DNA of 63,957 bases, filler included, from Vezdaea acicularis (lineage: Eukaryota): assembly GCA_026025075.1 (NCBI GenBank). It is 3 parts of 3 records of this genome, joined end to end, with 100 filler letters (N's around TTAATTAATTAA, not from the genome) between each part and the next. Parts side by side here need not be neighbours in the genome. Positions count along the whole stretch, not along the records: positions 26,892 to 53,506 come from JAPEUI010000177.1; 2 more parts are not named here. One strand, 5' to 3'. Shown here piece after piece: positions 26,251 to 54,317 of the stretch. Position 1 is the first letter of the stretch. Each line of letters starts with the position of its first letter. The notes under the pieces were generated by a model. It was not told the DNA's origin, searched no databases, and saw only the letters and a list, made by a program, of their open reading frames with translations. The position numbers were made by a program, and so were the translations under genes.

Positions 26251-26791
26251 ATGATTTCAGTACGGCAATTCTTACGGCCGCGCCTAGCAGAGTCGCTGAA
26301 GCTACCTCGAAGCTCTGTCAAATCATTCAATTCCAGCCGTGTCTCCGCTATCTATAGACAAAAGTCCATTCCACACTCCCGAACCATGCATATCCAAAGT
26401 ATCCCTATGTGTACGACTTCCCACTTCCAGCACGAGGCGCTTTGGTTAACACTATAGCATTCAAGGGACTGGGTCCGGCGACAACTATGCCTATCTGGTC
26501 GTGGATGAGACCTCGAAAGATGCTCTCATCATCGACCCGGCGCATCCCGTAGAGTAAGTAGACCGACTTGTCTGCCTGCCGCGCAATACCTTGCTGACGC
26601 TTCCATAGAGTATTACCAGTGCTCAAGCCCCAGATCGAGGAAGGCAAAATAAACCTCACGGGGATCCTAAACACGCACCAGTACAAACTCCCCAACGCAA
26701 AGGCGCTCACGCCCCCCTCGCACGCGTAGCTAACACTCTACACCAAGCCACAAAGACCACGCCGGAGGCAACGACGAGATGGTACAGTCAC
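26251..26791 (+). CDS. GLO2: Hydroxyacylglutathione hydrolase (glyoxalase II), 5' part truncated by gap
   Basis: Exons give MHIQSIPMW...DNYAYLVVDE..KDALIIDPA...ILNTHHHKDHAGGN (metallo-beta-lactamase HxHxDH). Conserved ATG at 26386 and in-frame upstream ATG at 26251. Confidence 0.92.
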
Positions 26792-26891
26792 NNNNNNNNN
26801 NNNNNNNNNNNNNNNNNNNNNNNNNNNNNNNNNNNTTAATTAATTAANNNNNNNNNNNNNNNNNNNNNNNNNNNNNNNNNNNNNNNNNNNN
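26792..26891. other. Artificial contig linker / assembly gap
   Basis: N-run + TTAATTAATTAA (stop codons in all six frames) + N-run, 100 nt in total. Confidence 0.97.
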
Positions 26892-27030
26892 GTCACTGGC
26901 TCTGTCGTCACTGGCTCTGTCGTCGCTGGCTCTCGAAGTCCAGTATTTCTGTTGTCGCTGGTTCTGTGGTCGCTGGCTCTCGATGTCCAGTATTTCTATT
27001 GTCGCTGGCTCTGTGGTCGCTGGCTCTGTC
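26892..27030. repeat. Tandem array of GTCRCTGGYTCT-based 15-bp and 32-bp units at the contig end
   Basis: Seven copies of the 12-mer core at 26892, 26907, 26922, 26954, 26969, 27001 and 27016. Confidence 0.9.
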
Positions 27031-27280
27031 ATCACCAGTAGAAGAAACATCGTTCAATCATGGGGGCAATGGAGTTGGGGATTACAATCAGGTTGGATGG
27101 GCGTCGGGAAAGATTATGCATACGAGGCACATATATCATTTATGAGCAAATAGGTTGATTAGCTACTTCTAATTGTATGTAGTCTAATTTTGATGGATCC
27201 TGCTACGTTATGTTAGTTCCTCGAGTAGTGATAGCTAGAGAAGTGGCTGATAAGCCGTACGCACCTCGAACGTAATGTCC

Positions 27281-27677
27281 CTATTCTTCAAGCTCCTCAT
27301 CGTAGTCTTGCAAGATTGACTCTACCACCTGCTTCAAAGTTGGCACGAAGTCAAAAGACTTCTCCCAAACTATGACATTCCCAGTGCCCACAACCTTGGC
27401 TTTGACTGCCGGAAGTTTAGTAGAGCACAACATCGCTTCCATCGACCACCGAGGAATTTTGGACAATTTCGGTGAAGCAATCTGAAGTTTCCAGGCGCCT
27501 TCTTCGGTCAGTCCCAGCCCTTCCTCCTCCTCGTCAAATCGACCACGGTCGCTCAAGTACTTGATCCACTCGACGACGCCACCGGCCTTGGAAGACTTCA
27601 GGGCAGACATCGTTGCCCTCTTCTAAGGATAGTTCAGCTTTGGAAATTGAGATTTGGGCTTTACTTACGTTAGGCAT
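27281..27677 (-). CDS. Small orphan protein (~116 aa, 2 exons)
   Basis: ATGCCTAAC|GTAAGT...CTGAAC...TAG|AAGAGGGCAACGATG splices in frame onto ORF 27281-27610. Confidence 0.55.
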
Positions 27678-27921
27678 CTTTAGATTCGTCGGAGAAATAA
27701 CGTCAGACAATAAGGTATCGGTTGTCGAAAGGTTATCGTAGAGTAGCTGAAGTGAAGTCGTCTATCGAGTTGGTGAAAGGTGAAAGTTGAAAGCTGCAAG
27801 CAATTCTCGGAGTGCGTATTAGTAGTCATTAAGCGAGGGAGTGAATGCCCCATTTGAAATGCGTGAATAGATGCCCTATGTCACATGCTTCATTGAGAGG
27901 CCCTTCCTAATCTACAGTTTC

Positions 27922-30805
27922 CTATATGACTTGTGGTGAATCGAGCTCTTCTACCGCAGCCAAAGCTTCCTCGAATTGGCTATCATCGTCGGATTGTTCT
28001 TGCTCCATGTACGCCGAACCAGCTTCAACCGTCATTGATTTATCGCTATGAAGCTGTCGTATAACTTCAAACGCTTGTTCAGCAAGCCCTGGAATCTTCA
28101 GTCATTCTGTAAGTTACGTGTGAGAATGACATACTTCGCAGCGTTATCAGGGGTCTTCCGTAAAAACTATCCCCTTTCTTTGTGATCGGGCCTTTGGACA
28201 TCTCTAAGAGGTCCATGATCAGATCTAGAGCTCTTGATCGAAAGCTGGGCTGGCTGAGACGAGGCAAGATTGACAAAAGCTCCGACAGTTGAGATTCGGT
28301 CCAGTCTAAGGTACGTTGTATCTCATTCTTCAGGTATTGCAGTTCTTCCGTCGCACGGTCTTGCCGGTACAGTGCTTCAACACTACTTATCATTTTCGCA
28401 GAGTATTTCCAGGTTGTTGCTTTCCCTACAGAGCTCGCTCGGCAGCTTTCAAACTCCCAGAGTGGTAGGTTACAACTTTTCTCGAGATTATCTAAATCGA
28501 AAGTATCCTTGTCTATTAGCTGTGGACGACAATATTCGGGTAGGCTGACACAGAGCTTGTTGAATTCGTCGACCTTCACTTCGATCCGTGGTAGTCGTCG
28601 CTTCAGCGACTGCACAAGTTTTTGTGCGCCTTTATGCCCAGTAATTCGACTGCGAATCGATTTCAACTCCACTGCGCGAGCTGATATCTGCTGATGAATG
28701 GTTGATTTGAGCTTTTCTAGACGATTCCAAGTATCGAAAGAGCTGTAGGTGGCCCACAACTGTCCTTCGATCGCCCAGTCCGCTCGACACTGGTTGTTCT
28801 GCCCCAATGCCTCGTCGGTTGCGGATACAGCTTGCGCGTATTGACTCTCCAAGTTTTCAATAGTAGGCATCCAACAATCTGTAGATTCAGCTCGCCGGAG
28901 AGTGAACCGGTCGAAGCTTTTTCGTAGTTCTATTTCGAGCTCTCTTTCCCGTCTGATGCATTGATAAACATCGTTGAAAGGGCGTTGATCAAGATAATCA
29001 TCAAAGCAAGCCTCAGTTGCCATAAACCAGCTCCGTTGAGCCTGTGCTTCCCTGCTCAATTCCGTTAACACAGCCTCGCGAGTTACCTGTTCACTTTGCT
29101 CCTTTATTGACAAAACCAAGTCTTCAATCACCCTTGAGCTCTCCTGTAACTCTTGATGGCATTTGTCAAAGCGCTTTTGCAGATTAGAGAAAAGTTTAAC
29201 TCGAAGACGGCGGGCTTGGTAGAGACCGTGCTGATCAAGCAGAATGATCCTCGACTTTGCACTTGACTGCCGGCCAACCGATACCAAATGTGCCATTGAT
29301 GCCCAATCGCGCTCGCAGCCTTCCCCGTCCGATCTTCCAAGCCCTTTGACCCTCAGTGGCCCCCACAAAAGCTGACAGCGAAGCTCATGGGAATAGTTGT
29401 GAAAAGCGTTCAAGCTAAGCTGGACACGCTTATGTAACACTGGGTCAGCAAATTGCAAAGATCGTTCAAACTTACATGCAATGTCGTATTGAACATGAAT
29501 TGCAGCGTTAGTAGGGCACATGTCCACAACAGACTTAATGAGAGAAACCGTTGAGGAGCTTCTCTCGCCTGCAAAAAGGTTGAGATACCGTAACGGAATA
29601 CTATGTCGACAGACCGCTCCCATGACACCGGTTTCGTCAAGATTTGCCATCGATTTTGGCTTGCGTTCTGCAGAGGCTGTAGCAAACGTGTGGTTACAGC
29701 CACCTAAATTCTTGCGGGGCTGACTATCCACTTCATCCTCCGTAGAGCTCTCCGTTATGAACAGTTCCGGAGTATAGTTTGACTCGCGGCTAGTGCTGAT
29801 CCATTTTCGCCGTGAATGCTGAAAGTTACCGTCAACAGAAAATACGCAGGGCAAGTCATCGTCATAGCTTCGATAGAAACAGGCTGGACAGAGACTTGCC
29901 AGAGTGTTCTGTTTGAATACGGCTCCGCTCATTCGTTCCAACTCTTCAGTACAATCTAATTGACATATACGATCCAACTCGAGCCAGTTGAAATAAGCAT
30001 ACTCCCATGGTTTTTTGAATTCTGGAAGACTTTGACGTGTCAATTTCTGTAAGAAGTCATGAAGACCGTGAGCCCAGGCGTACTTGGAGATACTGCCAAT
30101 CATTATGATGTTATGGAAAAAGCGAATCAAATCCATGGAAAAGGCTATATTCGGCTTTAAGGGCGCTATACATCATCAACTTCTACACTAACAATGTTGG
30201 ATATGGGTGAATCACTTGATGGAAAATAATTTCTTTCGATCAGAGAAGTAGCCGCGGCATCACAATCGCACCATTTCAAAACTGTTTTATTAGCTCCTAC
30301 ATGACATTAGCATTGTCATCAGGCTTGAACTAGGATTTTAAGCCTCACCTGTAAGGCTTACAAGCCACACAGTGTGGGAGCCAGCTTCACAGCTCCTAGC
30401 CAGACATGCAGCTTTCTTGCCTGTTTTCATAGCCTGCAAAAAGGGCGCTTGCACCTTTTCCCAGTTGGCGTCCCTGCGTCTTCTATTCTCTTCGTTGCTG
30501 CGCAGTAGAGGAAATAACAATGGCAAAGTCTCTCCGCTCTCAGAAGATTCAATAGCTCCAGCATTTAAATCAGACGTTGATAGATCTAGATCCTCCGACA
30601 GCTCGTTATCTGCCAAACGGGATCCGTCACCATTCTCAAAATCCATTAGGGAATCACGGTGGAGGGCTTTTGATTTACGAGCGTGGAGTTGTCTTGTGAT
30701 AAGCGGTTGAAGATCTTCCCAGATAGCTCTTCTTGTTTGTTGATTCCATCTCAGAGGCTTTTTGAGACCTGTAACGTAGAACGGAGTTCCTTTTCGTCGT
30801 CCCAT
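27922..30805 (-). CDS. CxC1-KDZ (Kyakuja-type) transposase, multi-exon
   Basis: Spliced CxC1-like WCDC...NYFPSTPLKPNIAFS; CPAC; SVDGNFQHSR; LDETGVMGAVCRH; GER; YDIACKF; FHNYSH...CQ; GLGRSDGEGCERDWA. These are the diagnostic KDZ RNase H-fold motifs, followed by a helical C-terminus. Confidence 0.9.
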
Positions 30806-31533
30806 CACAGGCAATGTTGCAGAGTATTTCAATTGTGCTATGGAAGAATGATCCGCACGACCCGCACACGAAGAAGATGGCCAGTAGGATTTGAGATTGA
30901 TGAGTTCTTGATGTTGCTGTGGAGGTATGAGTATGCTTGACTAGTTGACATTCAAACCTGATCAATACTAAACTGAAATAGTAGCATTCTAAGGCACTTT
31001 TCCATTTTCTAGGGTGAGTATCGTAAGAAGAACATAGATGAAAGCGTACTTGCCCCGGGAAGAACTTTTAATCTATCTTGTCCAGAATCTGGGTGCAGTA
31101 TTTAGGCATATATCAACAGAATGACAGAATGCGTATCTGTAGATAGATTGTGTCTATAGTCATGGATCAATTTCCTTGTCTTGATTGTAGCTATTGTACT
31201 GCGGGCGTCATCAGAAGGCCGCAATGTGGCGGCATATATTTTAGGTTATGGGAATGTCAATTTAATTAACTTGATGAAAGCGCTTGAAGCGCCACTAGAT
31301 TAGCGGCTAGCCGAGGGATTGACAATGGAGCGCATCTTTACAGTTTCATCGTTAGTCAACAGCGTCTTTGATTTTCCCTTTCTTAAACACTTCTCTCCCT
31401 ATGATACTGGACCTTGCTTCACCTATTCAAAGGTGAATACTTAAACTTGCTTCTCCCATGAGAAGTCACTGCTTAAGCCACCCAAACTTTTACAGCCTCC
31501 TCACTGACTAACTTTCAATTCTCCTCTCTCAAA

Positions 31534-33207
31534 ATGGGCTTCAAACCTGAAAACCCGTATCGCGTCGGCCGAACACTCCATCTTGGAACTGATACCAGTG
31601 AGAATTGGTTTCTCAAGGTGACCATCGAGAAAGTTTGGCCAATAACTCAGGCTGTCGTCATGCTAGTAGGGGTTGATGAAACATCCAACATTTCTGAACG
31701 TCTTCCAAAGCGAGCAATTTTAAAGATGTATGATCGGCGGTATACCAACAATATACGTAATGACCGAAAGTTTGATGAGTACAACCTGTTATCAGAGCGT
31801 CACTATCAGTCTCTAGTCACGGAAGGCTGGCCGTCTGCATGTCATGATAGCTATGTGGACCAACTCCTCACAAAGTTGGAATCAGAAGTCTCTGAAGGCG
31901 AGGACGATGATCAGGATGAAGATGATCAAGATTTTGATGAAGAGGAAAATCAGGTTTTTCAAAGAGTTCGTGCATGGAGCCAAGAATCATTACTTCAACA
32001 AGATATCTTGGACGTTTGGGCCACAGAGCATGCCACGTATGAACGCCTTGTGTCAATGCAAGGTAACGAAATACCAACCCTTTATGCTGCTAAGCTATTC
32101 GATGCTCCCGACAAACCATCTGATCTTCCTTTCCTGCCATGTGGTGGACTTTTGCTGGAGTACATTGACGGACAAAGCCTGGAGGATGCTGCACAACATA
32201 TGCCCCCTTCAACATTCAACAAGATTTATCAATCGATCCTGTCGACAATTCACAAGATGGTCAGGCTTGGGGTTGTAAATCATGACACTGCTGCGAGGGA
32301 TTGGCTATTGCGTAAAAGCGTTGAGTTGGGGTATCAGCCAGTACAAGTTGATTTTGGCCTTACTCAGATACAAGAGCATGAAAGCCTCCAGGAATGGCTT
32401 GCTTTTGCTGCTGGAAGGTCTCAAGAAGACCGTATTGTATTCACGATAAAGAAGCTTCCTGCTTGTCAACAATTGCGTCCCAAACATAACTATTATCGAT
32501 TCTATCAGGTATGAATATTTGCTTGATTTATACAACGCTTTCTTAGGTTTCTTGAGATTTCTAACTTCTAGAAATAGGATCAGCCAGCTTCTATGGACGA
32601 TTCCATGTTTGATGTAGGTTTGATGGTATCTTTGGACAATAGCAAAACAAACTCATCGCCTGTCGTTCACGCACAAGCATCTTCTATCGAGTCTCTATCC
32701 AGCCAAGATCGATCCGCTTCAAGCTATGCAGGCATGCAAACACCACCTGACTCACTATACAAATATGATCAAAAGAAGACAAGGCCAAGATCTCGATCCT
32801 CACCGACTTCAGTTGCCTCAGGAGAACTTGATTTCCATAAGCATGCCGAAGGCCCTATGCTGTTCTTGTCAGCCGAAAAACAAGAGGACATACAGCATAG
32901 GATTCGCGTCTGGCGACAGGAGGATATCACCATCCAACTTGATGAAAACCTTGGAGGTGAAAATGACCGTGCACATCTAATAGATTTAGAGGACGAACCA
33001 CCCCTCTTAGCTTTGTCACATCCGCGTCGTCGTAGACGTTCTGTGGCTAGCTGTAACATAGCGGGTAATCGTACCATTGATAGTACAAAAGAGATGGCAC
33101 TCACTCCTAGACCATATGACTCAACAAGTCACCATGACAAGGCAATGCCTAGAGCGTCCGATAGCTCTCAAAGCCCAAAAGCCAACACTGAGGAATATCA
33201 GCCTTGA
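31534..33207 (+). CDS. Atypical protein-kinase-like protein with Ser-rich tail (intron 32509-32577)
   Basis: AILKMYDRR, E..TYERL..MQG..IP.LY, GLLLEYIDG, VVNHDTAARDWLL, VDFG. GT at 32509 and AG at 32576-77 join in frame to ORF 32593-33207. Confidence 0.75.
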
Positions 33208-33997
33208 AAATCACTGCTGGGCAGCTCGAACAACGTCCAATCCATACAAAGAGTAGCTATCAAGAATTTAAGAACGCGAGTGAATTAATAATGGCGAACC
33301 AGGTACGAGATGGCTGTTCTGGTATGAACGGGACATTGGACCATCGCTCTACAGCTCTGGAAAGAGTGAGGGATGTTGTCAAGCCAAGACTTTGAAGTAT
33401 CATGATAAGTTCACTAGCATCACATAATGATGCACTGATGCTTGCTGCCGAGTTTAGTGTGTTAGTTGGGCCTGCAAATCATCTGAGATTGTATTCTTCC
33501 TGTTACGAAAAGAAAGTTTGCGTTGCTAGCTCTTTCTGTTGAATAATTCAATGGATACCACTCATATATGCCGCAAAATCCATCTGCTGACTATGCAAAT
33601 GCGCGTCGAAATAATTGATGGCATGTATTCGGGTTCGATGAAAATTTGTTACAGCAAGCTCGAGAGGGATATGCAGCCAACCTCTGTGAACATGCGTTCT
33701 GAGTACAGGGAAGTTGTCTTGGTTGACAGCATTGAGAACCTAGGAAATGGTCTAGATCATGCACTTCCAGCGCGTTATAAGAAGACGAGGCCGCAGGTTG
33801 CAGACTTTTTTTGAAAGACCCTCGGAGCATCTCAGGAATACTGTTACTATGCATCACCAGTTTTATCATATTGCCGGAAATCAAAGCAAAAAGGAGTCTT
33901 AGCTCTTTATTGTAAGAGTACTGTGAATGACTGCATGCAATTGGAGCGCAAAAAAGTCCGGTGGCGTAGGTGCCCGGGCGAACAAGAGCGGGCTCAA

Positions 33998-34682
33998 TGC
34001 GCTTGAAGCGCAATAAGCGGAAGCGAATAAGAGCTGGCTCCGAGCGCTCCAAGCGCATGTAATCTAGGCAAATCCTCCGTTTTTGCGTGTAGTTAGGCTT
34101 TACGCGCTTGACACGCATGGAGCCAGCCCTATGTTCGCATGGACACCTTGCGCCTCATGCGCATGCAATCTAGTCCGAGGCGGAGACGAAGGGTTTGCCA
34201 AAGCTTCATGCACTTGAAGTGCGTAAAGCCAGAATGCTTACTTCTGCGCTCTATGCGCTTCAAGCGCATGGTGTTCTTATTATCTCCAAAGCATCTTGCG
34301 CTTGAGGCGCATGGAGCCAATTTCCGTCCACTTGAGCTCCTTGCGCTTCAAGCGCAAGATGCTGCCAAGATGATAGGGGCTTCGTGCGCTTGAAGCGCAA
34401 GACGCCCCAGAAAGGCCAGTGGCGAACGATTCGTCCGGGCTCCTTGCGCTTGAAGCGCAAGAAGCTTGGTCGCGACCGAAGCAAGAACCGACGCTCGGGC
34501 GCCATGCGCTTCAAGCGCAAGATGCTGCCAAGATGATAGGGGCTTCATGCGCTTGAAGCGCAAAAAGCCCCCGAGAGGCTAGAGGCGAATGGTTTGCCTG
34601 GGCTTCTTGCGCTTGAAGCGCTGGAAGCCCAGTCGCGACCGGAGAGGAAGCCGACGCTCGGGCGCCACGCGCTTCAAGCGCA
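33998..34682. repeat. Array of 14 palindromic TGCGCTT(G/C)AAGCGCA repeats with 43-46 or 60 bp periodicity
   Basis: Copies start at 33998, 34043, 34103, 34149, 34209, 34254, 34297, 34342, 34385, 34445, 34505, 34548, 34608 and 34668. A 163-bp higher-order unit is duplicated at 34342-34504 / 34505-34667. Confidence 0.92.
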
Positions 34683-34717
34683 AGACGCTGGCTTCATCCG
34701 GTGAGTGTTTGGCTGAG

Positions 34718-34772
34718 GCCCCTTCACGAATAGGCGGATGAAGCCGCTTCGTCCGCCTATTCGTGAAGGGGC
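34718..34772. repeat. 55-nt near-perfect palindrome/hairpin
   Basis: GCCCCTTCACGAATAGGCGGATGAAGC-C-GCTTCGTCCGCCTATTCGTGAAGGGGC: 27-bp arms with one mismatch. Confidence 0.95.
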
Positions 34773-35692
34773 TCGCTTAGCAGCAACCGCATGCCAAGGG
34801 TGCAGAAATACGCGAAACCACGTGGATCATTATCAAAGGTTCTCGCATCTAAGAACTGATTGGTGAGCGCTGAAGCTGTACTAGCCCTTTACCCAGTATT
34901 TCTGCTATTTGTGAATGATGCTCTGAGAAGTATGTTGGCTGAGAACCGCATAACCAAAAGGGTTATGATTCTATCGTTCTCTCTACTCCTACCGACGCCC
35001 CTCACACCACAGGCATCATGTCGCTAAACCCGTCAAAGAACAAGGAGCTGAGTCGATAAAGCCACATCCACCCAAATACGACCAGAATAGTATCGGAATT
35101 AGTGCTAATAAATACCTGAAAGGCATTTTGAGATTTCATTCTAGGTTACGCGTGAAAAGGCGCTTCGTTGTTTCCTCCACAACGTAACCCGTAACCCCGA
35201 TGCACGCCTCCTCCATGAACCCGATCTCGCTTATCGGCCCACCCCTGTAAGTCAGGAACGTCATTGTATCGACCGGGTTCTCCCTCCGAAGATCGCGTTG
35301 AACGAGTTATGTCACATTGCAATCACATCACATCGCAGCACCGCATGCGTTTCAACCAAGACACGTATTTCGTCATGATGTAGGTCATTGTCTGCCCAAA
35401 TGCGGAAATATAGGGTGTTTGCTAGTGTCTGGTACTCTCGTCATGACTCTGAAAGGATGAAGATCAGGACGACTCAGGGTAAGGCCTCCCAAGTAGGTCA
35501 AGACGGTGATGTAAGGAAAGCATTGAGGGAGGTAGATACGTAGCTTCTGACGTGACGCTTTGTGAAGCGAATATATAAATCGAGTGAGATATGTTTTACC
35601 TCTCATCTCTCTTGATATACTTGAAAATCATCTCAATCCAAACCCGCTCAAAGATACAATTAATCTACTATATCTATAAGCTTCCCGCAAAA

Positions 35693-35991
35693 ATGTCCAC
35701 AGACTACGCCCGTTCCGGAGAAAACCACATCCCCGTCCAGAGTGACGATGCTCCAGTCGAGGATCCCATTGATGAGGGTACTGCCGACAGCGACCAACAA
35801 TTGGGTAGGCCGCCTCTTAGTATCACTTTGATGATTGATACTAACTTTATTTAGTGAAGGACGATAATGAGGCGATTGACAAGAGCAACATCGTGGAAGG
35901 TCGTACCAGAGGTGCCGGTCCAAAGGGTGGCTATAGTGAGCCAGATGAGGATGACCTTCCAGTGGAAGTGAAGGAAGGAAAGGAGGTGTAA
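35693..35991 (+). CDS. Small acidic protein with CHZ (histone chaperone)-like motif, 2 exons
   Basis: MSTDYARSGENHIPVQSDDAPVEDPIDEGTADSDQQL|VKDDNEAIDKSNIVEGRTRGA...YSEPDEDD, containing the ID.SNI..GRTRG motif. Confidence 0.7.
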
Positions 35992-36133
35992 ACCTACCAC
36001 CAACCTACAGATATAAAGGTGGATGATGCGCGAAACATGTGTATGAAATATTAGACGAATGTCCTTTTTTGAAGTGGTTTCGATTTCCGGTTGTCTATTA
36101 AGTAACGTTCGCTGCTGAGTTAAATTTCAAATA

Positions 36134-39100
36134 TTATTGTAATTCTCGAGTGATGAGGCCAACATGGTGCACGTAAGACTATCACAAATTAATACAGCAA
36201 ACAGTGGAGCGTTCGAAAACTTACACCTATTGTGTAGTGGAATCCAACGACTTCTTCATTAATCGAACATTCTAACCTAAAACTTAAAACCTCTTCTTCA
36301 TTGGGACTTTCCTGGGTATATATACGCCAATCAACAATAGAATGCTGTTGGCCATGGTTCGTTTGCAAAGTCATTTCTACAAGACGATTTCCAGCGTCGC
36401 GTTGCTGCATGCAGATGTCGACCGCAATGATACGCTCACCACCAAGTCCTTTGAATAAGCTGGTCAATATTACTTTCATTCTCAAATGAGTAAGGTCAAC
36501 AGTACCATTTATATTCATTACTTGCTTTGGGACATGCTTCGCGAAGCGGTCTTGCCAGTCTCCGAGGATAATCGTGCCCATTCTCGGACTGCCATGGAAT
36601 TTGATACCTTGTAAACCAAACCTTCCAGGGACGTCATTTACATAAGCTTCAATGCTTTGGAGTAATTCTGGCTCAAAAAGAGTAAAAGATTTGATTGGCT
36701 TCGAACCGTAGTAAGTTTGGGGGGGATCTTCATCCTGTAATTGAAGACCCCGCGGTATCAAGCTTGGGTCTCGCCCCCATGTTAGGGTGTGGTCGGCGCC
36801 GAGCTTAATCACGGCCGGTGCATTCGGGGCGGCCGGTGGCGTCAAAGAGTCGAGCGAAGATTGTTTTTCAATCTCATCATAGATAAGTCCAATACGATCA
36901 CAGTTTGAAGGCTATTAGCAATTAGCTTCATAAACTTCTAATGGTATTTCGTACCCATACATCAGAATAGCTCATGTATATTCCAATCGCCGTTTGCCCG
37001 TTGGGCGCCTTCTTTTCTATAATGACACCATCCTCCGGAGAACCAAACCATGGACTACACCGACCAGTACTAGTGCCAAGCTGATTCTTCATTAGCCACG
37101 ACCCATATTCGTCTTTTTGGGTACTTACCGCTACTGCACTAACGGTGCCGAAGACTGGCTCGGGCATGAAAATAGTAGTTATTCTCTCATTTTTGTGAAT
37201 GAGGAAGAGACTTTCGAATGCTGAAGCTTGGCCTAAGGGTTCGTCGTCCCAACTATCTCCTCGACGGAAACGTAAGCCGCAGAATCGGTTTCGAATAGAG
37301 TAACCCTTTACACCAGTCAAAGGTCCTTCCGACTCGCGCTCAAAAGCATCGGAGAGTACGTAGAACCTTTTTAGAAGCGATTGGTCGGCTTTAGCTGATG
37401 GCCGTCCAAAGTATGGAGAGCCTAAGTTGTATTCTTTTGCTGCCTCGGAATCATCTTGAATCAAAGGACACCAATCTATAATCCTTTCCGAGGTAAAAGT
37501 AAATTGAACTCCTGCCAAGAACTTCGCTTCAACTTCCATGAAGTGATTTTCTGACATTTTTTGATTCCCTTTGAGGAACTAGTTCTCTGTTAGATGTCAT
37601 TGTCATGGACGTGATTTTCGGCACCACTTGCCAGTAGATTTGGAAGATATTGATTAGACCAAGACGTGTCTTGAGGCCCATTGACGCTGATCGCAACTCC
37701 TGTAATTCGATCTCCTATGTTAGAGATCCGCTGAAACTCTTGTGCAAGAGCAGTGTCAGTATTTCCGAAGACGGTGTCTTGTCTTTTCCCGGAATAGCCA
37801 AACTTGATTCCCTCCATTTTACCGTATATAACGACATGTGAAATAGGTTCTGCAAATGACACCCAACCAGTGAACTTAGCGTGAGGCCGAATTTTGATCG
37901 CTTTGCGAGAGTCGCTGTTCTTAAGACCCTTGACGAAATTCGGCGGAGGGGGGCTGTCTACCCAAGGTAATAACTGCTCATCCGTCTCAACGAAAGGAAG
38001 CCGAAGTTCTTGCAACTCGTTATGCTGGGCAGGGTAAATGCTAAGCTGGCTGCTTGACTCCATCCGTGCTTCTTCGGGGCAGCTGATGGGTTCTGTGATT
38101 ATACCTAATTGTATGATGCGTCTAACCTACGGCTTGTTAGATATATCTGCCAGAAGGGGCTCAGCGTACCTCAGAGCTGGCGAGACAGTGGAAGCCAATG
38201 ATTGGATTCTTCAGAAGGGTCAGATCGCCTAGCCTTTTGGTATGAAGCTTGACGACTCGCTCTAACGCGAATATGCTCTGGGTTCCTAGGTAACGATTCC
38301 CGAATGGGGGACTTCTAGATCCCGACGAAAGTATGATCTGCAATGCTTAGCTATATAGCAACTGCTAATGTCATTTACTAAAACTTACCTGCAAACCATG
38401 AACCCCTAAGGGTCCATAGTTGATTACCGCACCGTAAATATCATCGCCAGAAGGAATCTTGAAAGATTGGCTGGGCTTGAGATCGCAGAAGCCTAGAGTA
38501 TCAGTCCGGCTGCCTCGGCCGATACTATACTGAAAGCTAAGCCCAACAAGGTAAGAGTTCTTAAGATAACCTCTAACTTGGATAGTCCTTCGGCTTTGGC
38601 CAAAAAGGTTGAGGTGCGGACGAATCATCCATTCTGAAGCACGGGTTCTCCAGTCGTCCATAATTGGACCTTCTCGTTCTAAAAGCAAAACATTGTTTGG
38701 TGGAGGGAACTTCCACATCGAAGCCTCTGCATGGGACAGGGGGACAGTCACTGGAGGTTCTGTCACATGTAAATCAGTAACATCGAATGTGATCGGGAAT
38801 CTTTGTTCCATCATGGCAAAGGTTTCGATGAAGCCCAGGGAGTTGACGAACACGCTCACCCCAGCAAGATGGCGATATTTCCGAGGACAGACTAATCGAC
38901 GGACAGGGTAATCCCAGTCACCAAAGGGCGGCGACAGTATCTCGTCATCGGCAGCTTCGACCGGTGTAGTAGTCTCGTTATCAAACACAAACCGAATGCC
39001 GCTAAGGCTACCATTCTTCCAACAGACGTAAAAACCTATCAGCACCATAGAGTCTGCAGGGTGTGGTCGATACGTCTCGCATAGGAGGGTCCGACAGACT

Positions 39101-40913
39101 CCAATCTGCTTGCAAAATTGGGTTGAATCCCGATACGAAGTTGACTTATACTCAGCAGAAAACTCAAGGCCACGCACATGGCGTGTCACAGGATCCAGCC
39201 AAATTCGAATCTGCTTGATCGAGGAGACCAGCTCATTAGGTCCAAGTGGCTCCGCTGACGAAGATTCGATTGATAAACTAGCAGAGTTCTCAGTTCCGGG
39301 TTCAGATGTGCCACTATCTGCCCCAGAATTCCGGATTGGATTGACGAAAAGAAGCGTCTCTCTCCAGCCATCGCTACCAGACAACCTTCCCACCGCGCCC
39401 CTTACGATTGAGGTCGCATCCGCCACGGCTTTAGGCATTCCTCCATTAACGTGTAAGTTCTCGCTTGATCTCTCAACTAGGTCATCCGCTATTGGCTGCA
39501 AAATCTTCCAGATGCGACGCCTATTGCGAAGGCCGTTGTCGACCTTCCAGCTTCTAGAGACATACTCAAATATATTTTTCCAATCAATGCGGGGCTGTCC
39601 ATGGGTTCGGTAATCTTCGGTCTGTCGAAGCAATTTGGGTAGGTATGACATCTCTTCTCTTATGAAACGACGATATTCGCGCTGAGGGATGGGCATTATA
39701 CTTGCCGGGACCGAGGCCATCCGCCATCGAAAAGTTTCGACGCAACTTAAATATTTGAGGATTTCAACAAGTATTTCAGATGGTAACAACCAGAATCGGT
39801 CCCTTGTGTCACTTTTTAGAGGCTTAGCCTGGCCAAACGTCTTTTCCGAGGCAATTTGGAGTTCAAGGGGAAGATGCAACAATGGCGATTGTGATGGATT
39901 CGCAACGAGCCACTAGACTTGCATTAGTGGATATCAACATAAATAACTATTCCACGTACATGTAAGCTGTCGATGTGAAGCCATCTTAGCCCTTCTCCGC
40001 AGATTTGTGCCTCTCTGTAACCACCATTGATGACTGAGGATACGGATAACCGAGTGATCACTTCAAAAGAATCACCACGGCGAAGAGCTGCGGTGGTTAA
40101 GTCAGACGGCTTCCCCGTATCCGCAACTGGAAGGAGATCGCAGAGGTAATTCCATAGCTGATCTGTGTCCATGTGCTCGTCGTCATCTTCAGATCTGGAG
40201 TCGAGCTCGCTAGTGATTCCTCGTCTTGCCTTGCAGACCTGGAAAGCGTGGTCTAGTATATCCCAACACTCATCGTGAAAGGGAAAGCTACTGATTCGGA
40301 ACTTTTGGTCGATTCTATCGGGTTCCTGGTACACATGAAAGCCATGGTTTCGACCAAAGAAGGGCAAGCCTTCCTCGTCCTCCTCTTCAGATTCAGGTTC
40401 ACTGTCGACAGATGCATATGCGTCAGCCCAAGACGCATCCTCTCTCATCCTCCCTCGACCGGTGAGATAGGTCGACTGATCATTGGCCAGTTGCTGCAGA
40501 CCATCTTGAGGATGTACGCGTGCGTGTCGATGTATTAGTGCACGGATAATTCGGATCCACTTGGTATCGTTAGATTCCAGCTTCGACGCATCATAAGCTC
40601 GCCGCGTTTCAGTTGATACCAAAGGTCCGCTTGCTGCGGTTGCCCCACGAAGCTCAAGGCTTAAGGGACTCTTGACCTTGACATTTGCAGTTATCTCAGG
40701 CAGCAATACGGGTTGATAAATATTGAAGTTGTTTACAAAGTGAGCGCCTCTAAGCTCGCGCGGAGATTCCTCCTCCTCTGTTCTGGCCTTTTCCGCGAAT
40801 CGATGTTGGCCTCGAGCAAAATCGGCTGTTCGGACGCGAGCCAGCGGGCCGCCGCAAAATGCGCAAAGAAAATGAGTGCGGTAGGAGTCCTCGGACCAGA
40901 AAGAGCCTTGCAT
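36134..40913 (-). CDS. Large multi-exon F-box protein with repeated jacalin-like beta-prism C-terminal domains
   Basis: N-terminal CAFCGGP...FPFHDECW; F-box DRFWLLPSEILVEILKYL; DW...GLRNRRRIW; repeated L.GI.F / GE.I..V / TNHG motifs across ORFs 39924-40913, 38371-39882, 37590-38063, 36928-37557 and 36189-36845. Confidence 0.7.
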
Positions 40914-42525
40914 CTCAGGATCGGACCTTACAATGATCGTTAGCTCTCATGATCAACCTCTGAACAAGATTGAGGATTGACATTGAGTTAAAGCACGAGA
41001 GCTCCGCCATGACTGGCAGTAGCTATCTTCAAAATTCCAGCTCATATTATATCACATTCTCTAGTGAAGAACGGGATATGGTAGACAAAAAAAGGTACAG
41101 GGATATCCACGCAGTGGACACCAGCTGAATGCGCCACTTGCCCCGCTAACCCGTTCTGAGCGTGACCTACTTTTTCTTCACGAACCCTTCCACTGTAGGA
41201 TCGACCGGATTCCATACCTATTCGTCTACCCAATTGCATCCTGCAATGCATCTGATCGACTAGGATCGTAACAATTGATGACGTCGAACCCTGTGATTGG
41301 CAGCAAACCCGGCATCTCTCCAGCCTTGCCATACCGGCTGATGATTGCCTACGTTTTCATGTTAGTCTCCATAGCCAATGACAGGGTTATATACCCAGAG
41401 TCCTGGCTATCACATTGACGAAACGCTGGTAGGAAATCTCTTTCGCCAGATTTCCTACCTCTTGATTTGTGACATAACATATGTGATTAATCAAAAAGGT
41501 TTATATCATATGCACAGCATCCCTTCTAACCGTCCATGTATCCCATGGAAACACCAGTCCAAGCCACCCCCTCATTAACAAACCGAATACGCTTGCTGTT
41601 GTTAGACGTTAAAATGAAGGAGAGCCCTGAGAATTTCTCGACCGCCATATATACGGGCTGCTGAAGGGCGTGCGTCACCCTTTATCCAGGCATCCTCTCG
41701 AAACGTTTTGAAAACCTTGGCTCAAGGATTAACCCACGACGATGTCTGTCAAGATTCTATCGACCCAGCTCTGTTCCCCAAAAATGTAGCAGGGCGGAGT
41801 TGAATTTAAGTTTACGGAATCAGAGACTATATTAGGCGGAGAGCACTACTTTGCTTTAGCAGCCGTCAACCCACGCGATGGCGGCCCTAGGGTTTAAGTT
41901 CCCGCACGTGCGCCAACGTCATGTGTCAAGCACATCGCTGCCGTCATTTGATTTTCTAATCAGTTCCTATCCTAACCTGCATCGCGAAAATCACCAACAC
42001 CCTTCCAAGTAAAAGGAGTTGGCTCCTACGATATCCCTCAAAATCGGCAGGAAGTCTATTATGAGGGAGTAAACCTATTACGAAAGACAAGCCATCTATG
42101 TAAATACAGCATAGCGTACTTTAGCATGTAGATGTTTGAAGAGGAGATAAAGACTGACGTCGACGAAGGGAGAACGACTCTAGCAATCCTCTTAAAGCAT
42201 TCAGCAAGGTTACTAGGGGAAAACTTCGCAGATCTCGATTTCTCGGAGTCCGCTGGTTGAACGACAAGTCAAACATAAGACTCCTCACCTATCTAGTGTA
42301 GTGAGCGAAGTTGTGAAAGGAGCGTGGAGGAGCGGCTATTCACGTAGCCCACTTCACATCTTTCTTATATGGCCGCCATGTAATAGCAACCCCTCGAACT
42401 CCTAATCTCTGCAATCACCATGAACCTCCCGTTCAGTTGCCCATGCACAGGAAATTTACTTGTACTCACATAAACAGCTATATGAAGTCTAGCACGGCGC
42501 CGCCTTCAACTCCAACTAACGCACC

Positions 42526-43413
42526 ATGTCTGCATATCGCTCGCCACTTATCGAAACCCTTGATAGTAATGGCTACGTTATCCTTTCTGCATTCCTCACA
42601 GGTAGCGAGCTTAGGCGGCTACGACTGGCTACTAGTCGTACTATATTATTAGCCCGCAGTGGACAATGGCCACACCTTCGGACACTCCCGAAACAATTTC
42701 CACCGTGGTCTTCAACAACAACTAATGGGATCTGGGGCATACAACACCTACTACATCCTAGCCTACCCGACTCAGCGGAGTTTGCTAGGAGCTACTTCAG
42801 TGATACTATCATCGATACGGTAAAGGCTCTGCTTGGTCTTGCCGACAATGATGGAGACGACGTTTTGGTTATGGAGCTATATAACCTCCTAATTACCCCT
42901 GATCGGAATTTCGAGCTTCGTTGGCATAGGGACGACATACCACCCTCTGCAGCAGCAGTGGAAGAACTCGAAAGGCTTGGGAAGCCTGCATGGCATGCAC
43001 AATGGAATCTTGCGCTCTATGACGACGAATCCTTGGTCGTTGTTCCTGGGAGTCACAAACGCGCGCGCACTGCGGCTGAGATTGCGGCAGAACCTTACGA
43101 AGCAGACATGCCAGGCCAAAAGACTGTTGAGTTAAAAGCTGGCGACTGTGTGTTCTATAATAATAACATCTTGCATAGAGGAGTGTATGACAGTACGATA
43201 CGGAGAGAAACTTTACATGGGAGTATTGGGCATGTTCGCGGCTCTAGAGTCCGCGCAAGAAACGTATTACAGCATGGCGTCGGATCGTGGATCCTGCAGG
43301 CTGATTTTATATCATTGGAAGAGAGGCAAAAGACAAGGGCTGAAAGCATGAGAGAGAACCTTATTAAGATGGGAGCCGAGAATATTGATAGTGCATTCTC
43401 ACAAAACGATTGA
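42526..43413 (+). CDS. Phytanoyl-CoA dioxygenase (PhyH)-family Fe(II)/2OG oxygenase
   Basis: L..NGYVIL, WHRDD (HxD), LVVVPGSHK, LKAGDCVFY...ILHRG, R.TLH. Confidence 0.88.
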   Translation: MSAYRSPLIETLDSNGYVILSAFLTGSELRRLRLATSRTILLARSGQWPHLRTLPKQFPPWSSTTTNGIWGIQHLLHPSLPDSAEFARSYFSDTIIDTVKALLGLADNDGDDVLVMELYNLLITPDRNFELRWHRDDIPPSAAAVEELERLGKPAWHAQWNLALYDDESLVVVPGSHKRARTAAEIAAEPYEADMPGQKTVELKAGDCVFYNNNILHRGVYDSTIRRETLHGSIGHVRGSRVRARNVLQHGVGSWILQADFISLEERQKTRAESMRENLIKMGAENIDSAFSQND

Positions 43414-43555
43414 ACAGGTGCTCTGGAGAGGTGTAGAGATTGAGGTAGAAGCAAACACATTATTGGATGGCGTAACGGACACCCCCTATCTATCCGGCCT
43501 AGGAGGGATGTGGGGTGACTGCGGGTAGTGTTTAGAGGGCGACGATCGCGCCTAG

Positions 43556-43792
43556 TGCACGGGGTGTTAGCTATGCCTGTTCCGCAAAGAAGTGGCGTCC
43601 GATTTTCGTGATTCATCAGCACCACGACTACAGACGCGATCGGAATTTAAAAGCTTATAGAGGCATCTCAAGGTGGAATAAGGTTTCTGTTGCCACTGAT
43701 AAAATTGTTTAAAGCGAAAGGGTGGACGGTGGAAAATTGGGAAAATCGGACGCCACTTATTGGCAGAACAGACATAGCTAATACCCCGTGCA
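43556..43792. mobile_element. MITE-like element, 237 bp, with 52-bp terminal inverted repeats
   Basis: 43556-43607 TGCACGGGGTGTTAGCTATGCCTGTTCCGCAAAGAAGTGGCGTCCGATTTTC versus the reverse complement of 43741-43792: 47/52 identical. Non-coding interior. Confidence 0.8.
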
Positions 43793-43807
43793 TAGGTCAC
43801 GTTCGTA

Positions 43808-46375
43808 TTACAAATCCCTGATCGCCCCATCGAAAGCGTCGATAATCCGGTCGTACATCTTGACAGTATCGCTTGCTGGTGGTGTTCCCCAAAAGATTGA
43901 TCCGTCTGAAGTGATGGGAAACAGGATGCTGCGAAGTCTTTCCGCCAGAGGCTTGAGCTTCTTGAAGGACGTGGAGAACTCGGCCACCAGTTTTCTGAAA
44001 TAACCCTTCTCCATGTGCGCACGTTTCATAGATGCAATATTGTCATAGGTGCCACTGTACCAGCTACGTAAGAAGTTTTTTGGCATCCTCCAGTGGACGT
44101 ATTCGCTTGGTACTCGAGACGCACTTTCGAGGCTGCTCGAGTCCTCAACATCTTCGACTGTACCCTTGTGGCGAACGCATATCCATAAGAAGACGTAGAA
44201 GAAAGACTCAAGATCGTGTCGGAATGTGTGACTGAGACCTTCGAGCACTTCAATGGCCATGAACTGCAATGTGCCGGTTTGACTTCCAGCTCCTCTGCAA
44301 GATGATCCTCGCTCCTTCGCTAGATCTAGGTCGATTAGGATGCCTGTTGGCGTCTCACCCCTTGCAATGACGATATTGTTCATGGAAATGTCTCGATGAA
44401 GTATTTTCCCATCGATCAAAAGTGACTTGTGAGCCAGGATGGCATCACGTAATACTTGAAGAAATTCTTTGATGGAATGGAATTCACCAAACGGTCTTCC
44501 AGCGGGGGAGACTATCAGGCAACAGTAGGCTCGATCTTCATAAGGCTCGTCCTCATCGCTCATAAGACTATCCGGGTGAGAATCTTGAGCGTTGGAGTAA
44601 AGGATCGTTTCGGGCTCGAGCGGCTCTGGTTTGGGTGTCTCATCACTTAAACGTCTTCTCTTAGTGCTGCTGCTCTCCCGCTGGACTACATCCCTTTTTC
44701 TCTTTCGACTTGAATTTGTAGCCACGCTAATGAGGCTAAATTCCAATCCTCTTGGAAGGCTTGCGCTCTTCTTCAGCTTTCCTCTTAAGCTCCCTTTCTC
44801 CCCCGTTTGTGAAGGACTTCTCTCGCCCACGGGACCGTTTAGCCAAGCACTTTCTCTTGAGTTCTGACGTGGCCTTTGAAACGACAAGCCACTCCGCAAG
44901 TTTGCGATAGTGTCGTGGCATTCGCCTGTAACGATATCTTGATGGTCGACCCATCTCGCGATCCCCTTAACGCCTCTGTCTTTTGCCAATCTCAGTAGTT
45001 CTCCTTCCCGTCGTCGTTTTGCTGATGGCCAAGAGAATTTGACGACGTACTCCCATTCTATTGCGCGCTCTCCCTTACCTCGATAACAGGTCGTGCCACG
45101 ACATACGATGCCGTTTTTAGAAGCAATGGGCGTGTCCTCGAGATAGATCTTTGATCTGTGAGACATAATATGGCTACCAATGTTATCACGCTTGATAAAG
45201 GTATTCAGTCCGAGCTCTTCATCCGACATGAGGGCATAGCCGGCAAGAACTCTCACAAAGTGTTTTGGATACCCGTGGATATCAAAATTTGGCGAGCTGT
45301 ATGTCCCAGACCTGTCGAACAAATAGAGTCTCATCCTACTTCCACACAAAGTGTACCCATGCGTAAATCTCCTACTTGGCTGGGCTCCAAAAACTTCCCG
45401 GGCGTATCCTGCCAGTTGCAGTAAAGTGTCCTGTTGGCCATCGTCGTCTGGATTGGACTTTACTACACCGATAACAAGCACGCAAGACCAGTCGCGTTTC
45501 CCAGAAGACATAACAGCATCTGAAGGGGCGAGGAAGTGATCCAGCTTTTGATTTCGTTCGGAGCCAAGTAGTCCGTGCCAGTTTGACGTGAAATAGGATC
45601 GATCCAATCCTGCCAGAAACTTATCTTGAAAGGTCTGCAGCCAGTCTAAAAGTTTGCTTTTAGTCGCAGATACTGGGAATTCCATCCATCTGTCTTTCTC
45701 GCACCACTCCTTGGACCTTTCATACTTCTCATTGGCCGCATCCGTCCAGGCCTTCCCCTGGAAGTATCGATCGAAAAACCCCTTCACGTCGTTGTACGTA
45801 CAGTTTCGCAGCTCCTCGGTGATCTGTTGATTAATCTCGCTGCGCTTTTGCTCTAGACTTCTCCGCAACGATGAAGACCTACAGGGCGTATCGAGGACCC
45901 ATTTTTCTACAGCGGTGGGAGGAGTGGCGTTCCTTATGGAAGTGGTGAGGTCAAACACGGCAGCCCAGATATTGACGTCGCTCTGTCCGGTGAGGACTGC
46001 CTTTAGGAGCGGGCGAACAAGCTTTGTACCTGCTTCACTAGAAGAGAGGTGAGGAAGGAGCATAACATCGCGAGAGAGCAGCCCATCTGATATCCTTGAA
46101 CGAAGTGATCGAACGGCGGGTTGACTTAGCAGGGCCTCACAGAGATCCAATATTGCATTTTTCGTATCTATTCAAGATTAGCAGCGTATTGATCTTACTG
46201 AACGCCAATGACCTTTGTTTGGCCATCGAGACGTGAGCTTGTCTACTATCTCGGGGGTGTCGACACCCTTGCCCTTCTCGTGCTTGGACGTGAATGCGGT
46301 GCAGAAGTCTAGAAGCCCGTCTTTCAGAGGGTGTTCACTGATTATCGCGAGCTCCTTTGATGAAAGCTGAGCCAT
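43808..46375 (-). CDS. Fungal-type protein kinase (FunK1/Pkinase_fungal), 2 exons
   Basis: W..VLVIG..K, QLAGYAREVF..QP.RRF.HG, LFDRSG, ELGLNTFI, IVCRGTTCY, VVKFSW, LHRDISMNN, LIDLDLA, TGTLQFMAIE, HTFRHDLESFFYV. Confidence 0.93.
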
Positions 46376-47400
46376 TTCTCTTGTGGAAGCGCTGAGGTTA
46401 GAGATAGCGGCCCATATATTAATATGGCGTTATTCGATGAAGACAGCCGTAACCGATTTCCACGCGCTCCGACTCAACGCGCACTTTAGCGCTATTGAAC
46501 CGCCCCTTAAGATTGGATGCAAACTTCACCCACGAAGTCCGTATGCAAGCAGCACTTGCAGACCTAGAGCCTCGATTGAAGCCAAATTATGCTGCGACCG
46601 CTGAGAAATGAAATTTAATTTGATCTACGCCTCCTAAACGTGATAAAAGAAGGTCAGTCTCTAAAGCAGAAATGGCCTCCGAATACCAATATAGACACCA
46701 GTGGCAGGCTCCCTATCCCAATCGCACCCTCAATGTTGTAAATCGAACCCCCCACAACCCAGAGTCAGAACACCCTAGGCCAATTGTAAAAAAACAGCTT
46801 GATTCATCAGAAATCGTCAGTCGCGCGCTGACGAGCCAGAATTGGAACCCTTGGTAGGCATCACTTGGCTATTTACCGATCTGTGTCTGTCGCTTTCGTC
46901 ATCGTCCCAAAGGTTTCCAAGTAAGATCGTGGAAGCTTCCAAAGCATTGGCTGTCCCGCTTTCAATTCTGTGAGGCAATTGATATGTTGACTTGGCTGTA
47001 CCGTCGTCTAGACCGCTGTCGTCTGCAATACTGGCGATGAGAGCGACCTCGCTGATGCCATCTTCCGAATGGTTGCCTGCATCAACCGTTTGCCCATCGA
47101 GAAGTCTTCTGAAGAGACCATCCATTGACGCATCCCATTTGCTAGCATTCGTCTGCAGTGAACCTATCCATGGGCTTCATCCTCAACATGTAATTGAGAA
47201 TATCTACCACCTGATCACTACTCTCGTCCAACTCGTCCACATCCTCCGTCGCTTGACCCCGGATCCTCTGCAGTCTAGCTGGTCTACTCGCGTAGCACTG
47301 TGCACCGATGTAAGACGAATGGCTTATTCCTCGGAATGTGCATACAGTAATATATCAGGCAGGTTGGTACCATGGGCCCAACCTGCTCCAGACCGAGCGT

Positions 47401-53506: not shown

Positions 53507-53606
53507 NNNNNNNNNNNNNNNNNNNNNNNNNNNNNNNNNNNNNNNNNNNNTTAATTAATTAANNNNNNNNNNNNNNNNNNNNNNNNNNNNNNNNNNNNNN
53601 NNNNNN
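53507..53606. other. Artificial contig linker / assembly gap
   Basis: N-run + TTAATTAATTAA + N-run. Confidence 0.97.
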
Positions 53607-54317
53607 TCGCTCCAGTACCCCAACTCCCAAAGCAGCAGGAAACCATTCTCCAAAAGTGATAGCAAATCCACGTCCTATCTTCGCCCCCCCCCTCCCCGGG
53701 CGGGGAGGGAGATAGTCAGAGAATAAGCACCAGACGTATGTGTGGTGTGGGTTGGCTCGTTTGGATTTTGTAGTTGGGGTTATAGTGGTAGTCGTGGTGG
53801 TAGGAAGGGGATAGTAACTTCTGGGGTGGTGAGGGTGGTGAGGGGGTATATGTGAATTGGTAAGGTACAGATATCATCACAGGTTGACTTATTGGATAGG
53901 GGGGTGGAGTGTGGAAGGAGGGCTTGATTGGATGATTGGGGTTGTTTGTGGGAGAAAAGGGGGGGGGGGGTACAGGGGGTGAGACAGGGGTGGGCGGTTA
54001 TGGCGGGTGATGCTGGTGTGAAGAGTGGATTTACGAGCGAGAGTTTGAGGGGGGGAAGCCCGCTTAGGCTGGACCATAGCAGGTCCATAAAATGTAAACC
54101 GGTTCACAGTCACGAAGAAAGCATTCCATTGCAATACAACCATGTAATAACATATCGCAGCTATCATTGCAATCCAGCTCCGCGCCGGCTTTCCAGTAAA
54201 TCGCAGCTGCAGAAGCCAAAAACAACAAAAGCAACCCCCCCTTAACCAACACGAGGCTAGCTGCTTATTCAAATCCAAGAATCGCGTGACGAGGCAACCG
54301 AGATGTAAACGCATATC

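Follow-up and report, generated by a model that had tools for sequence, protein, structure and literature searches.

A CxC1-KDZ transposase gene paired with an atypical kinase-like gene in the ascomycete Vezdaea acicularis: a candidate transposon with a linked accessory gene

Introduction

We report on a locus in a metagenome-assembled genome (MAG) of the ascomycete Vezdaea acicularis (assembly GCA_026025075.1), contained in a stretch of 63,957 nucleotides that we refer to as the window and whose numbering is used throughout. The locus comprises a CxC1-KDZ transposase gene, an atypical kinase-like gene in head-to-head arrangement with it, a small orphan gene, an array of short palindromes and a long hairpin, all of which lie in a block that begins at ~27.0 kb or further left and ends at position 34802. 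An earlier note, made by inspection of the sequence, had described this block as a single mobile element of ~8 kb with the kinase gene as its cargo and two different, repeat-rich ends; as a whole this interpretation is partly supported by the analysis described below, in which we consider the block as a possible KDZ transposon with a linked accessory gene. To our knowledge, KDZ transposons have been characterised almost exclusively in Basidiomycota. A survey from 2017 lists KDZ, in the portion of the article available, for Basidiomycota, Rhizophagus, Mucoromycotina and Allomyces and not for Ascomycota (PMC5751038).

An intact CxC1-KDZ transposase gene

The transposase gene (P0022) occupies positions 27922 to 30805 on the minus strand and comprises four exons (30805-30347, 30294-30217, 30163-28136 and 28086-27925), which encode 911 amino acids without internal stops and onto which the protein maps letter for letter. 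A long open reading frame (ORF) on the same strand (28079-30172) matches the Pfam family KDZ (PF18758) with an expect value (E) of 6.4e-40, and the full protein does so with E 1.1e-39 and 136.9 bits, against a cut-off of 26.6, over profile positions 4 to 212 of 217. The N-terminus carries a zinc-chelating module that is assigned to CxC1 (E 1.8e-12, 47.8 bits against a cut-off of 26.9); the same stretch also matches CxC2 (E 1.2e-08). The RNase H-like core keeps its conserved, presumably catalytic acidic residues in an alignment with 12 KDZ relatives, D356, D407, E461 and E464 being invariant and D291 nearly so. Judged by its sequence, the gene is an intact CxC1-KDZ transposase gene of an ascomycete; the earlier note was right in calling it spliced and uninterrupted and in assigning it to an ascomycete, the source record being a Vezdaea acicularis MAG.

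Decay of the type caused by repeat-induced point mutation (RIP) is not seen in the block, with a TpA/ApT index of 0.70 and a (CpA+TpG)/(ApC+GpT) index of 1.35, and the flanks are likewise devoid of a RIP signature by these indices. None of the seven block ORFs scanned against Pfam (E ≤ 0.1) matched a TET/JBP family; the matches obtained are KDZ and CxC1 together with a sub-threshold match to BLOC1_2, and nothing else. A 68-nt part of the transposase gene (28601-28669, the ...GHKGAQKL... region) is covered at a depth of ~22 in the metagenomes described below by contigs that are unlike the window on both sides; the same metagenomes therefore contain other KDZ copies.

A divergently transcribed atypical kinase-like gene

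The second main gene (P0032) lies on the plus strand at 31534 to 33207 and encodes 534 amino acids in two exons (31534-32508 and 32578-33204). The two genes are arranged head to head with their starts 728 nt apart. The kinase-like domain spans approximately residues 1 to 325, and the C-terminal 200 amino acids are without match. P0032 has no Pfam match of its own at E ≤ 1 and does not reach the gathering threshold of Pkinase (PF00069). It has a near-identical database twin (P0014), which differs from it solely by T252A, and an exhaustive HMMER search with this twin as query retrieved 360 family representatives with E ≤ 0.001, of which 64 reach E ≤ 1e-10. Weak Pfam matches occur among 56 aligned family members, to Pkinase in 15 (best E 1.7e-05), to ABC1 in seven and to Kdo in five, and the family profile matches PknB and other Ser/Thr kinases in the hinge, the catalytic loop and the DFG region (best E 4.4e-8). 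An AlphaFold2 model of P0014 (predicted local distance difference test score, pLDDT, 88; predicted template modelling score, pTM, 0.87) was used in a Foldseek search, in which all listed matches are kinases (Rio2, ULK1, PknB and WaaP) with E ~1e-5 and TM scores of 0.37-0.43 that are lowered by a long helical insert. The predicted fold of the P0032 family is that of a bilobal kinase akin to eukaryotic protein kinases (ePK-like).

Of the residues expected of such a fold, the beta-3 lysine (K64) is present in all 56 aligned members, the catalytic aspartate (D251) in 53 and the DFG aspartate (D273) in 55, and P0032 also keeps the conserved glutamate E88. Position 256, which corresponds to the catalytic-loop asparagine and is Asn in 43 of the 56, is Asp in P0032 and its three closest relatives, and these four sequences of one clade are the only ones in the alignment (4/56) with this replacement. 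A glycine-rich loop was not seen in P0032 by eye. Since an aspartate takes the place of the catalytic-loop asparagine, the sequence suggests that P0032 may be an unusual phosphotransferase or else a pseudokinase. The label 'atypical kinase-like' is correct, and the divergent kinase-like gene described in the earlier note is borne out by its head-to-head position and by a kinase fold in both profile and model.

The family itself was known before, and in general it has no tie to transposons. Its clusters carry the name 'Protein kinase domain-containing protein' and display weak matches to Kdo, APH, ABC1 and FTA2; Atlas clusters with a score of 0.99 span Ascomycota and Basidiomycota, and members are found in Nemania, Hypoxylon, Echria, Candelaria, Collybiopsis and Lentinula. 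The N-terminal extensions of 13 longer family members contain no informative domain.

Palindromes, hairpin and the right edge of the block

To the right of the kinase gene lies a palindrome array (33990-34690) with 11 copies of (T)GCGCTTSAAGCGC(A), spaced by 43-60 nt in its newer part. Against an expectation of 0.11, the window contains 12 copies of the 13-nt palindrome GCGCTTSAAGCGC: 11 fall within 33999-34681, the twelfth is located at 31280-31292 in the 728-nt divergent intergenic region (30806-31533) between transposase and kinase genes, and there is none in the other 56 kb. The last 350 nt of the array consist of 2.1 copies of a 163-nt higher-order unit, and the array differs in length between samples, as revealed by a joint from 34570 to 34471 ('goes back 100') in the runs X1 and X2 introduced below. 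A near-perfect hairpin follows at 34718-34772 with 27-nt arms that are 96% complementary; its folding energy of -37.4 kcal/mol (z -9.2) was matched by none of 200 shuffles. Array and hairpin, which the earlier note had listed for this side of the block, are both far beyond chance. The remaining 30 nt (34773-34802) end in ...GGGTG. An Rfam search of 26893-35300 yielded no matches.

Paired palindromes were also found at 13 metagenome loci, none of which has a tblastn match (E ≤ 1e-3) to three KDZ and two kinase proteins. In five of these loci (L006, L007, L009, L010 and L012) the palindromes GCGCTCGAGCGC and GCGCTTCAAGCGC alternate in arrays, which reach 17 motif copies in L007; the five loci are devoid of a KDZ or kinase gene and represent a palindromic satellite unrelated to the GCGCTTSAAGCGC array.

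Strain comparison and a structural breakpoint

Metagenome contigs from four runs of one study (X1 to X4, labelled moss metagenome) were compared with the window over 26893-46892. Within the block (27022-34316) the 15 pieces listed contain 4 differing letters in 5,535 nt (~0.07%), X1-X3 alone 2 in 3,956. To the right of 34803 the 13 pieces listed from X1-X3 contain 177 differing letters in 12,941 nt (~1.4%), a count without X1 record 7, a piece with ~14% unlike letters that falls in a multi-copy kinase gene. In X4, where cover is thin, 11 of 12 pieces are at least 99% alike in block and flank both, and the only flank piece listed (39751-39901) is free of differing letters.

The contrast between block and flank coincides with a change in structure. 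In X1, the contig that carries the diverged flank matches the window from 34803 onwards, and an X2 contig matches rightwards from the same position and continues leftwards with at least 255 unlike letters. There is, in other words, a structural breakpoint at 34802/34803, 30 nt beyond the hairpin and directly after ...GGGTG. Thirty letters of the X2 loose end found no match in the window, and this loose end indicates that the right flank exists joined to something else. Taken together with the difference in divergence, the breakpoint implies that the history of the block has been uncoupled from that of its flank; the strain data fit a segment that has recently moved or introgressed, without proving it. 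A fold-back assembly artefact at the hairpin was considered and rejected, because the break falls at 34803 rather than at the palindrome centre (34745) and because the flank, read as its reverse complement, does not give the loose letters.

The TG with which the sequence before the breakpoint ends has a chance of 1 in 16. Kyakuja families, in the parts of the source available, have 7-bp target site duplications (TSDs) and CA..TG termini without terminal inverted repeats (TIRs), and Dileera has 8-bp TSDs (PMC12730594); the available parts of two preprints give TIRs of 139-241 bp and TSDs of 4-8 bp for CxC1-KDZ elements of Cryptococcus (bioRxiv 10.1101/2024.08.15.608186, 10.1101/2025.05.19.654958). 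Zisupton elements are likewise bounded by TIRs.

Cover also varies inside the block. Left of ~27.5 kb it is nearly absent in X1 (0.36) and present in X2 and X4. The near-identical proteins of the two genes lie on separate ENA contigs of only 3,578 and 3,034 nt, and both X1 and X2 have contigs that end at 30881 and resume at 31080, where no repeat is visible. Several assemblies are broken by something immediately upstream of the transposase start.

Linkage of transposase and kinase genes at other loci

The nearest relatives of both proteins permit a comparison of gene neighbourhoods. One KDZ relative (P0003, 66% identical to P0022) and one kinase relative (P0016, 53-55% identical to P0032) are each recorded on an ENA contig of exactly 19,185 nt, which is most simply explained by one contig with a second KDZ-kinase pair; P0003 and P0016 are probably such a pair. 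The KDZ relatives P0024 and P0002, both Vezdaea acicularis MAG by name, are 63-67% identical to P0022 and located on contigs of 14,304 and 18,478 nt, and the other kinase contigs measure 204,817 nt (P0015), 15,267 nt (P0017) and 4,893 nt (P0018). A partner on the same contig is thus found in two of five kinase loci and in two of the three KDZ lineages of this clade. More distant KDZ relatives, one of them from Bachmanniomyces sp., are 33-45% identical, and KDZ proteins from named basidiomycetes share only 19-31% identity with P0022.

The divergence of the two genes runs in parallel. P0022 is 63-67% identical to the other three KDZ proteins, which are 74-75% identical between lineages; likewise P0032 is 49-55% identical to the other four kinases (P0015 to P0018), which are 66-76% identical between lineages. 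For both genes the copy in the window is the outlier, a pattern consistent with the two genes having been duplicated or transposed together.

Contig layout and the left side of the block

The window consists of three MAG contigs placed end to end. Positions 26793-26892 are an artificial contig-joining linker, an N run, TTAATTAATTAA and a second N run (N50-TTAATTAATTAA-N50, with stops in six frames), which is not genomic and which recurs in identical form at 53508-53607; the sequence in between (26893-53507) is a single contig of 26,615 nt. Both main proteins, KAI9852503.1/M1824_001878 and KAI9852504.1/M1824_001879 ('MAG: Vezdaea acicularis'), are recorded on a contig of exactly this length. 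As the linker directly precedes it, the supposed left end of the element is a contig edge: position 26892 marks the start of a contig and is not a transposon terminus, and, the contigs being joined artificially, the DNA to the left of the linker is not known to be a neighbour. The picture of an ~8-kb element with two structured ends is not borne out in this form, its left 'end' being the first base of a contig. Of the two asymmetric ends, the structure on the right is real, with a breakpoint 30 nt past the hairpin. The left terminus, the TSD and the true length lie outside the assembly.

The first bases of the contig are a tandem array (26893-27041) in which a 15-nt unit is nested in a 47-nt unit present in ~3 copies; its motif occurs seven times against 0.47 expected. 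The earlier note had already recognised a tandem array on this side; the array probably caused the assembly to break at the contig start. A coding reading of the array was rejected because the 47-nt period is no multiple of three. On the other side of the linker, an ORF (26609-26792) that runs into it appears by eye to be a glyoxalase-II-like gene cut by the contig end.

The small orphan gene (P0183; 27281-27677, minus strand) consists of exons 27677-27669 and 27622-27284 plus the stop codon and encodes 116 amino acids. It exists as described earlier, and a database search returned only the protein itself, with no homologue among six candidates; it has no Pfam match and no usable Atlas match. 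It had been taken for a part of the same unit, a view that finds no support in homologues or in the surroundings of the other KDZ copies, beside which the gene was not found.

Genes of the right flank

Further to the right, the contig carries a large 'fungal protein kinase' gene (43808-46171, minus strand; Pfam Pkinase_fungal, E 1.6e-124). One metagenome contig is ~14% unlike this gene and has a 69-nt stretch replaced (45878->45948), which suggests paralogous copies. Next to it, at 43542-43806, lies an inverted repeat with 66-nt arms, 83% complementary and 133 nt apart, that coincides with a doubled summed depth (16 vs ~8 in X1), and X1-X3 show numerous loose ends at 43577-43777. The repeat resembles a multi-copy fold-back or miniature inverted-repeat transposable element (MITE)-like element beside the fungal-kinase gene. 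Two large multi-ORF genes on the minus strand (36189-38126 and 38371-40946) without Pfam match are located between the block and these features. By eye, both contain repeated G-[LI]-x-F modules and the latter an F-box-like LPSEILVEILKYL motif.

A transposon, a stationary gene pair or a misassembly

We assign a probability of about one half to the reading that the block, from ~27.0 kb or further left to 34802, is, or until recently was, a KDZ-superfamily DNA transposon of a lichen-associated ascomycete to which the kinase gene is linked as an accessory. With the start of the contig inside or next to the element, only the portion from within its left part to its right end would be visible. The notion of a single mobile element draws on the intact transposase gene without RIP-type decay, the linkage and parallel divergence of the two genes, the restriction of the palindrome to the block, the breakpoint after a TG, the low divergence of the block and the precedents among known elements, and it has a considerable number of observations to contend with. 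No TIR was found: apart from the site itself, the window has no reverse complement of the last 20 nt before 34803 (up to 3 mismatches), and the 26.6-kb contig contains no long-range inverted repeat that would enclose the block. The assembly lacks the left end and with it the TSD and the full length of the element. In X1-X4 no contig joint skips the block, and neither a near-identical second copy of it nor an empty site was shown among the protein relatives and X1-X4 contigs. Summed depth over the block, which is no copy number, is not raised (~5-6.5 vs 7.6-8.2 in X1), and the piece counts of the strain comparison cover the longest pieces listed, beyond which there are 176 further ones. The only KDZ relatives found are 63-67% identical and hence give no sign of recent multiplication. 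The X2 loose end ends in a palindrome-like GAAGCGC, so that the breakpoint could be a polymorphism of array or hairpin instead of an element edge. The wider kinase family is an ordinary fungal one, situated on large contigs in Nemania, Hypoxylon, Echria and Candelaria. As for the co-occurrence of KDZ and kinase genes, by which the earlier note proposed to judge its reading, the outcome is mixed. It is encountered on the contig of P0003 and P0016, for whose co-location the shared length of 19,185 nt is the sole ground, and not elsewhere: no KDZ ORF (383-1220 amino acids) is recorded on the contigs of 204,817, 15,267 or 4,893 nt that hold P0015, P0017 and P0018, and no kinase ORF (179-571 amino acids) on those of 14,304 or 18,478 nt that hold P0024 and P0002, where short contigs and unannotated remnants could hide a partner.

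Many of these observations would suit a less probable alternative in which a stationary KDZ gene, perhaps domesticated or long immobile, resides beside an ordinary kinase-family gene or has been duplicated with it, the arrays and the hairpin are a local satellite unrelated to transposition, and 34803 is a length polymorphism between strains. The missing TIR, the lack of a joint skipping the block, KDZ relatives no closer than 63-67%, a kinase family widespread in normal genomes and the occurrence of kinase copies without KDZ, and of a KDZ copy without kinase, on their contigs all point in its direction, as do the variable length of the array among samples (joint 34570->34471), the GAAGCGC-like motif that closes the loose end, and the KDZ-domain proteins of Cryptococcus without TIR or TSD, perhaps relics, that are mentioned in the available part of a preprint (bioRxiv 10.1101/2024.08.15.608186). 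A stationary locus does not, however, predict divergence that is ~20-fold lower in the block than in the right flank of the same samples, unless a sweep or introgression is invoked, and against it, too, are the palindrome, which the array shares with the promoter between the two genes and which the other 56 kb lack, and an intact transposase that retains its conserved acidic residues. It is also conceivable, and in our estimation quite improbable, that the 26.6-kb contig is a chimera in which the block of one strain and the flank of another were joined through the repeat array, with both the divergence contrast and the breakpoint at 34803 being products of mis-joining. In favour of this, the source is a MAG, the site of the join would be a repeat array, a place at which assemblers change from strain to strain, and in other assemblies, too, the contigs are broken at ~30.9-31.1 kb and at the array; yet the likeness of the thinly covered X4 to the window in block and flank (11 of 12 pieces at least 99% alike) argues weakly against such an error, in that the combination of block and flank types in the window exists in one sample, and the X2 loose end, unlike for at least 255 letters, is no strain variant of the window.

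A tentative model of the element

If the block is a KDZ transposon, its DDE-type transposase would recognise the element through the N-terminal zinc module (CxC1). CACTA/En-Spm elements carry subterminal repeats. By analogy with these, the palindrome array is the best candidate for a set of subterminal binding sites of the transposase, and the palindrome copy in the shared promoter might tie the expression of both genes to occupancy by the transposase. The kinase gene would be an accessory or a passenger, sharing the movement and the expression of the transposase gene, and would hold the place taken in other KDZ elements by TET/JBP genes or ORFs of unknown function.

A still more elaborate scenario can be drawn, which we consider unlikely to hold in all its parts at once: a deep-branching KDZ lineage of lichen-associated ascomycetes would have recruited the kinase with the Asn-to-Asp replacement as a stable accessory instead of TET/JBP, would use arrays of 13-19-nt palindromes as subterminal binding sites, with the same site in the shared promoter, and would recently have spread between strain backgrounds that are ~1.4% apart. 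Independently of this scenario, the palindrome shared by array and promoter is a concrete candidate for a transposase-binding site. No KDZ binding site is described in the available parts of three sources (PMC12730594; bioRxiv 10.1101/2024.08.15.608186, 10.1101/2025.05.19.654958). If the kinase does travel with KDZ, it would represent a second kind of accessory enzyme for KDZ elements and a handle on how these elements deal with their hosts.

Comparison with known systems

The earlier note called the termini of fungal KDZ elements poorly characterised, which no longer holds, judging from the available parts of two sources (PMC12730594; bioRxiv 10.1101/2024.08.15.608186). Among the closest known systems are the elements of Cryptococcus, whose active CxC1-KDZ elements measure 6.4-10.9 kb and contain extra ORFs (bioRxiv 10.1101/2024.08.15.608186, as available in part). 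KDZ1, KDZ2 and KDZ3 likewise combine CxC1 with a KDZ transposase and, in the accessible text, are given as 9-11 kb with extra ORFs of no known domain (bioRxiv 10.1101/2024.08.15.608186, 10.1101/2025.05.19.654958); the block described here, of at least 7.8 kb and with two extra genes, is comparable. KDZ1-3 have TIRs and TSDs and, according to the same partial texts, were caught moving, in contrast to the block, where none of these was shown. They also differ in their host, a basidiomycete rather than an ascomycete, and in their accessory genes, that of the block being kinase-like.

A second parallel is provided by the TET/JBP-carrying Kyakuja/Dileera/Zisupton elements of Basidiomycota, which, in the available part of the source, similarly combine a KDZ transposase with a linked non-transposase gene thought to move with it (PMC12730594). 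The same source, as far as available, describes Kyakuja termini as CA..TG without TIRs; at our locus the breakpoint follows a TG and no TIR was found. The partner is kinase-like here, in contrast to TET/JBP in the basidiomycete elements. A precedent for kinase cargo in fungal DNA transposons is supplied by IS3EU transposons that carry an alpha-kinase gene, oriented in rust fungi opposite to the transposase gene as in Vezdaea (PMC12730594, available in part). IS3EU belongs, however, to a different transposase superfamily, and alpha-kinases are a different class from the ePK-like fold of P0032.

Compared with the small atypical fungal kinases, P0032 is a regular member in which K64, D251 and D273 are conserved, and a KDZ gene on the same contig is seen only in the P0032 clade. 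A full-text literature search for a KDZ transposase and a kinase in Ascomycota retrieved only PMC12730594. The presence of an intact CxC1-KDZ gene that has relatives in Vezdaea and Bachmanniomyces is a sign of an ascomycete branch within the KDZ superfamily, and what is new relative to the systems known so far is the host group and the partner gene.

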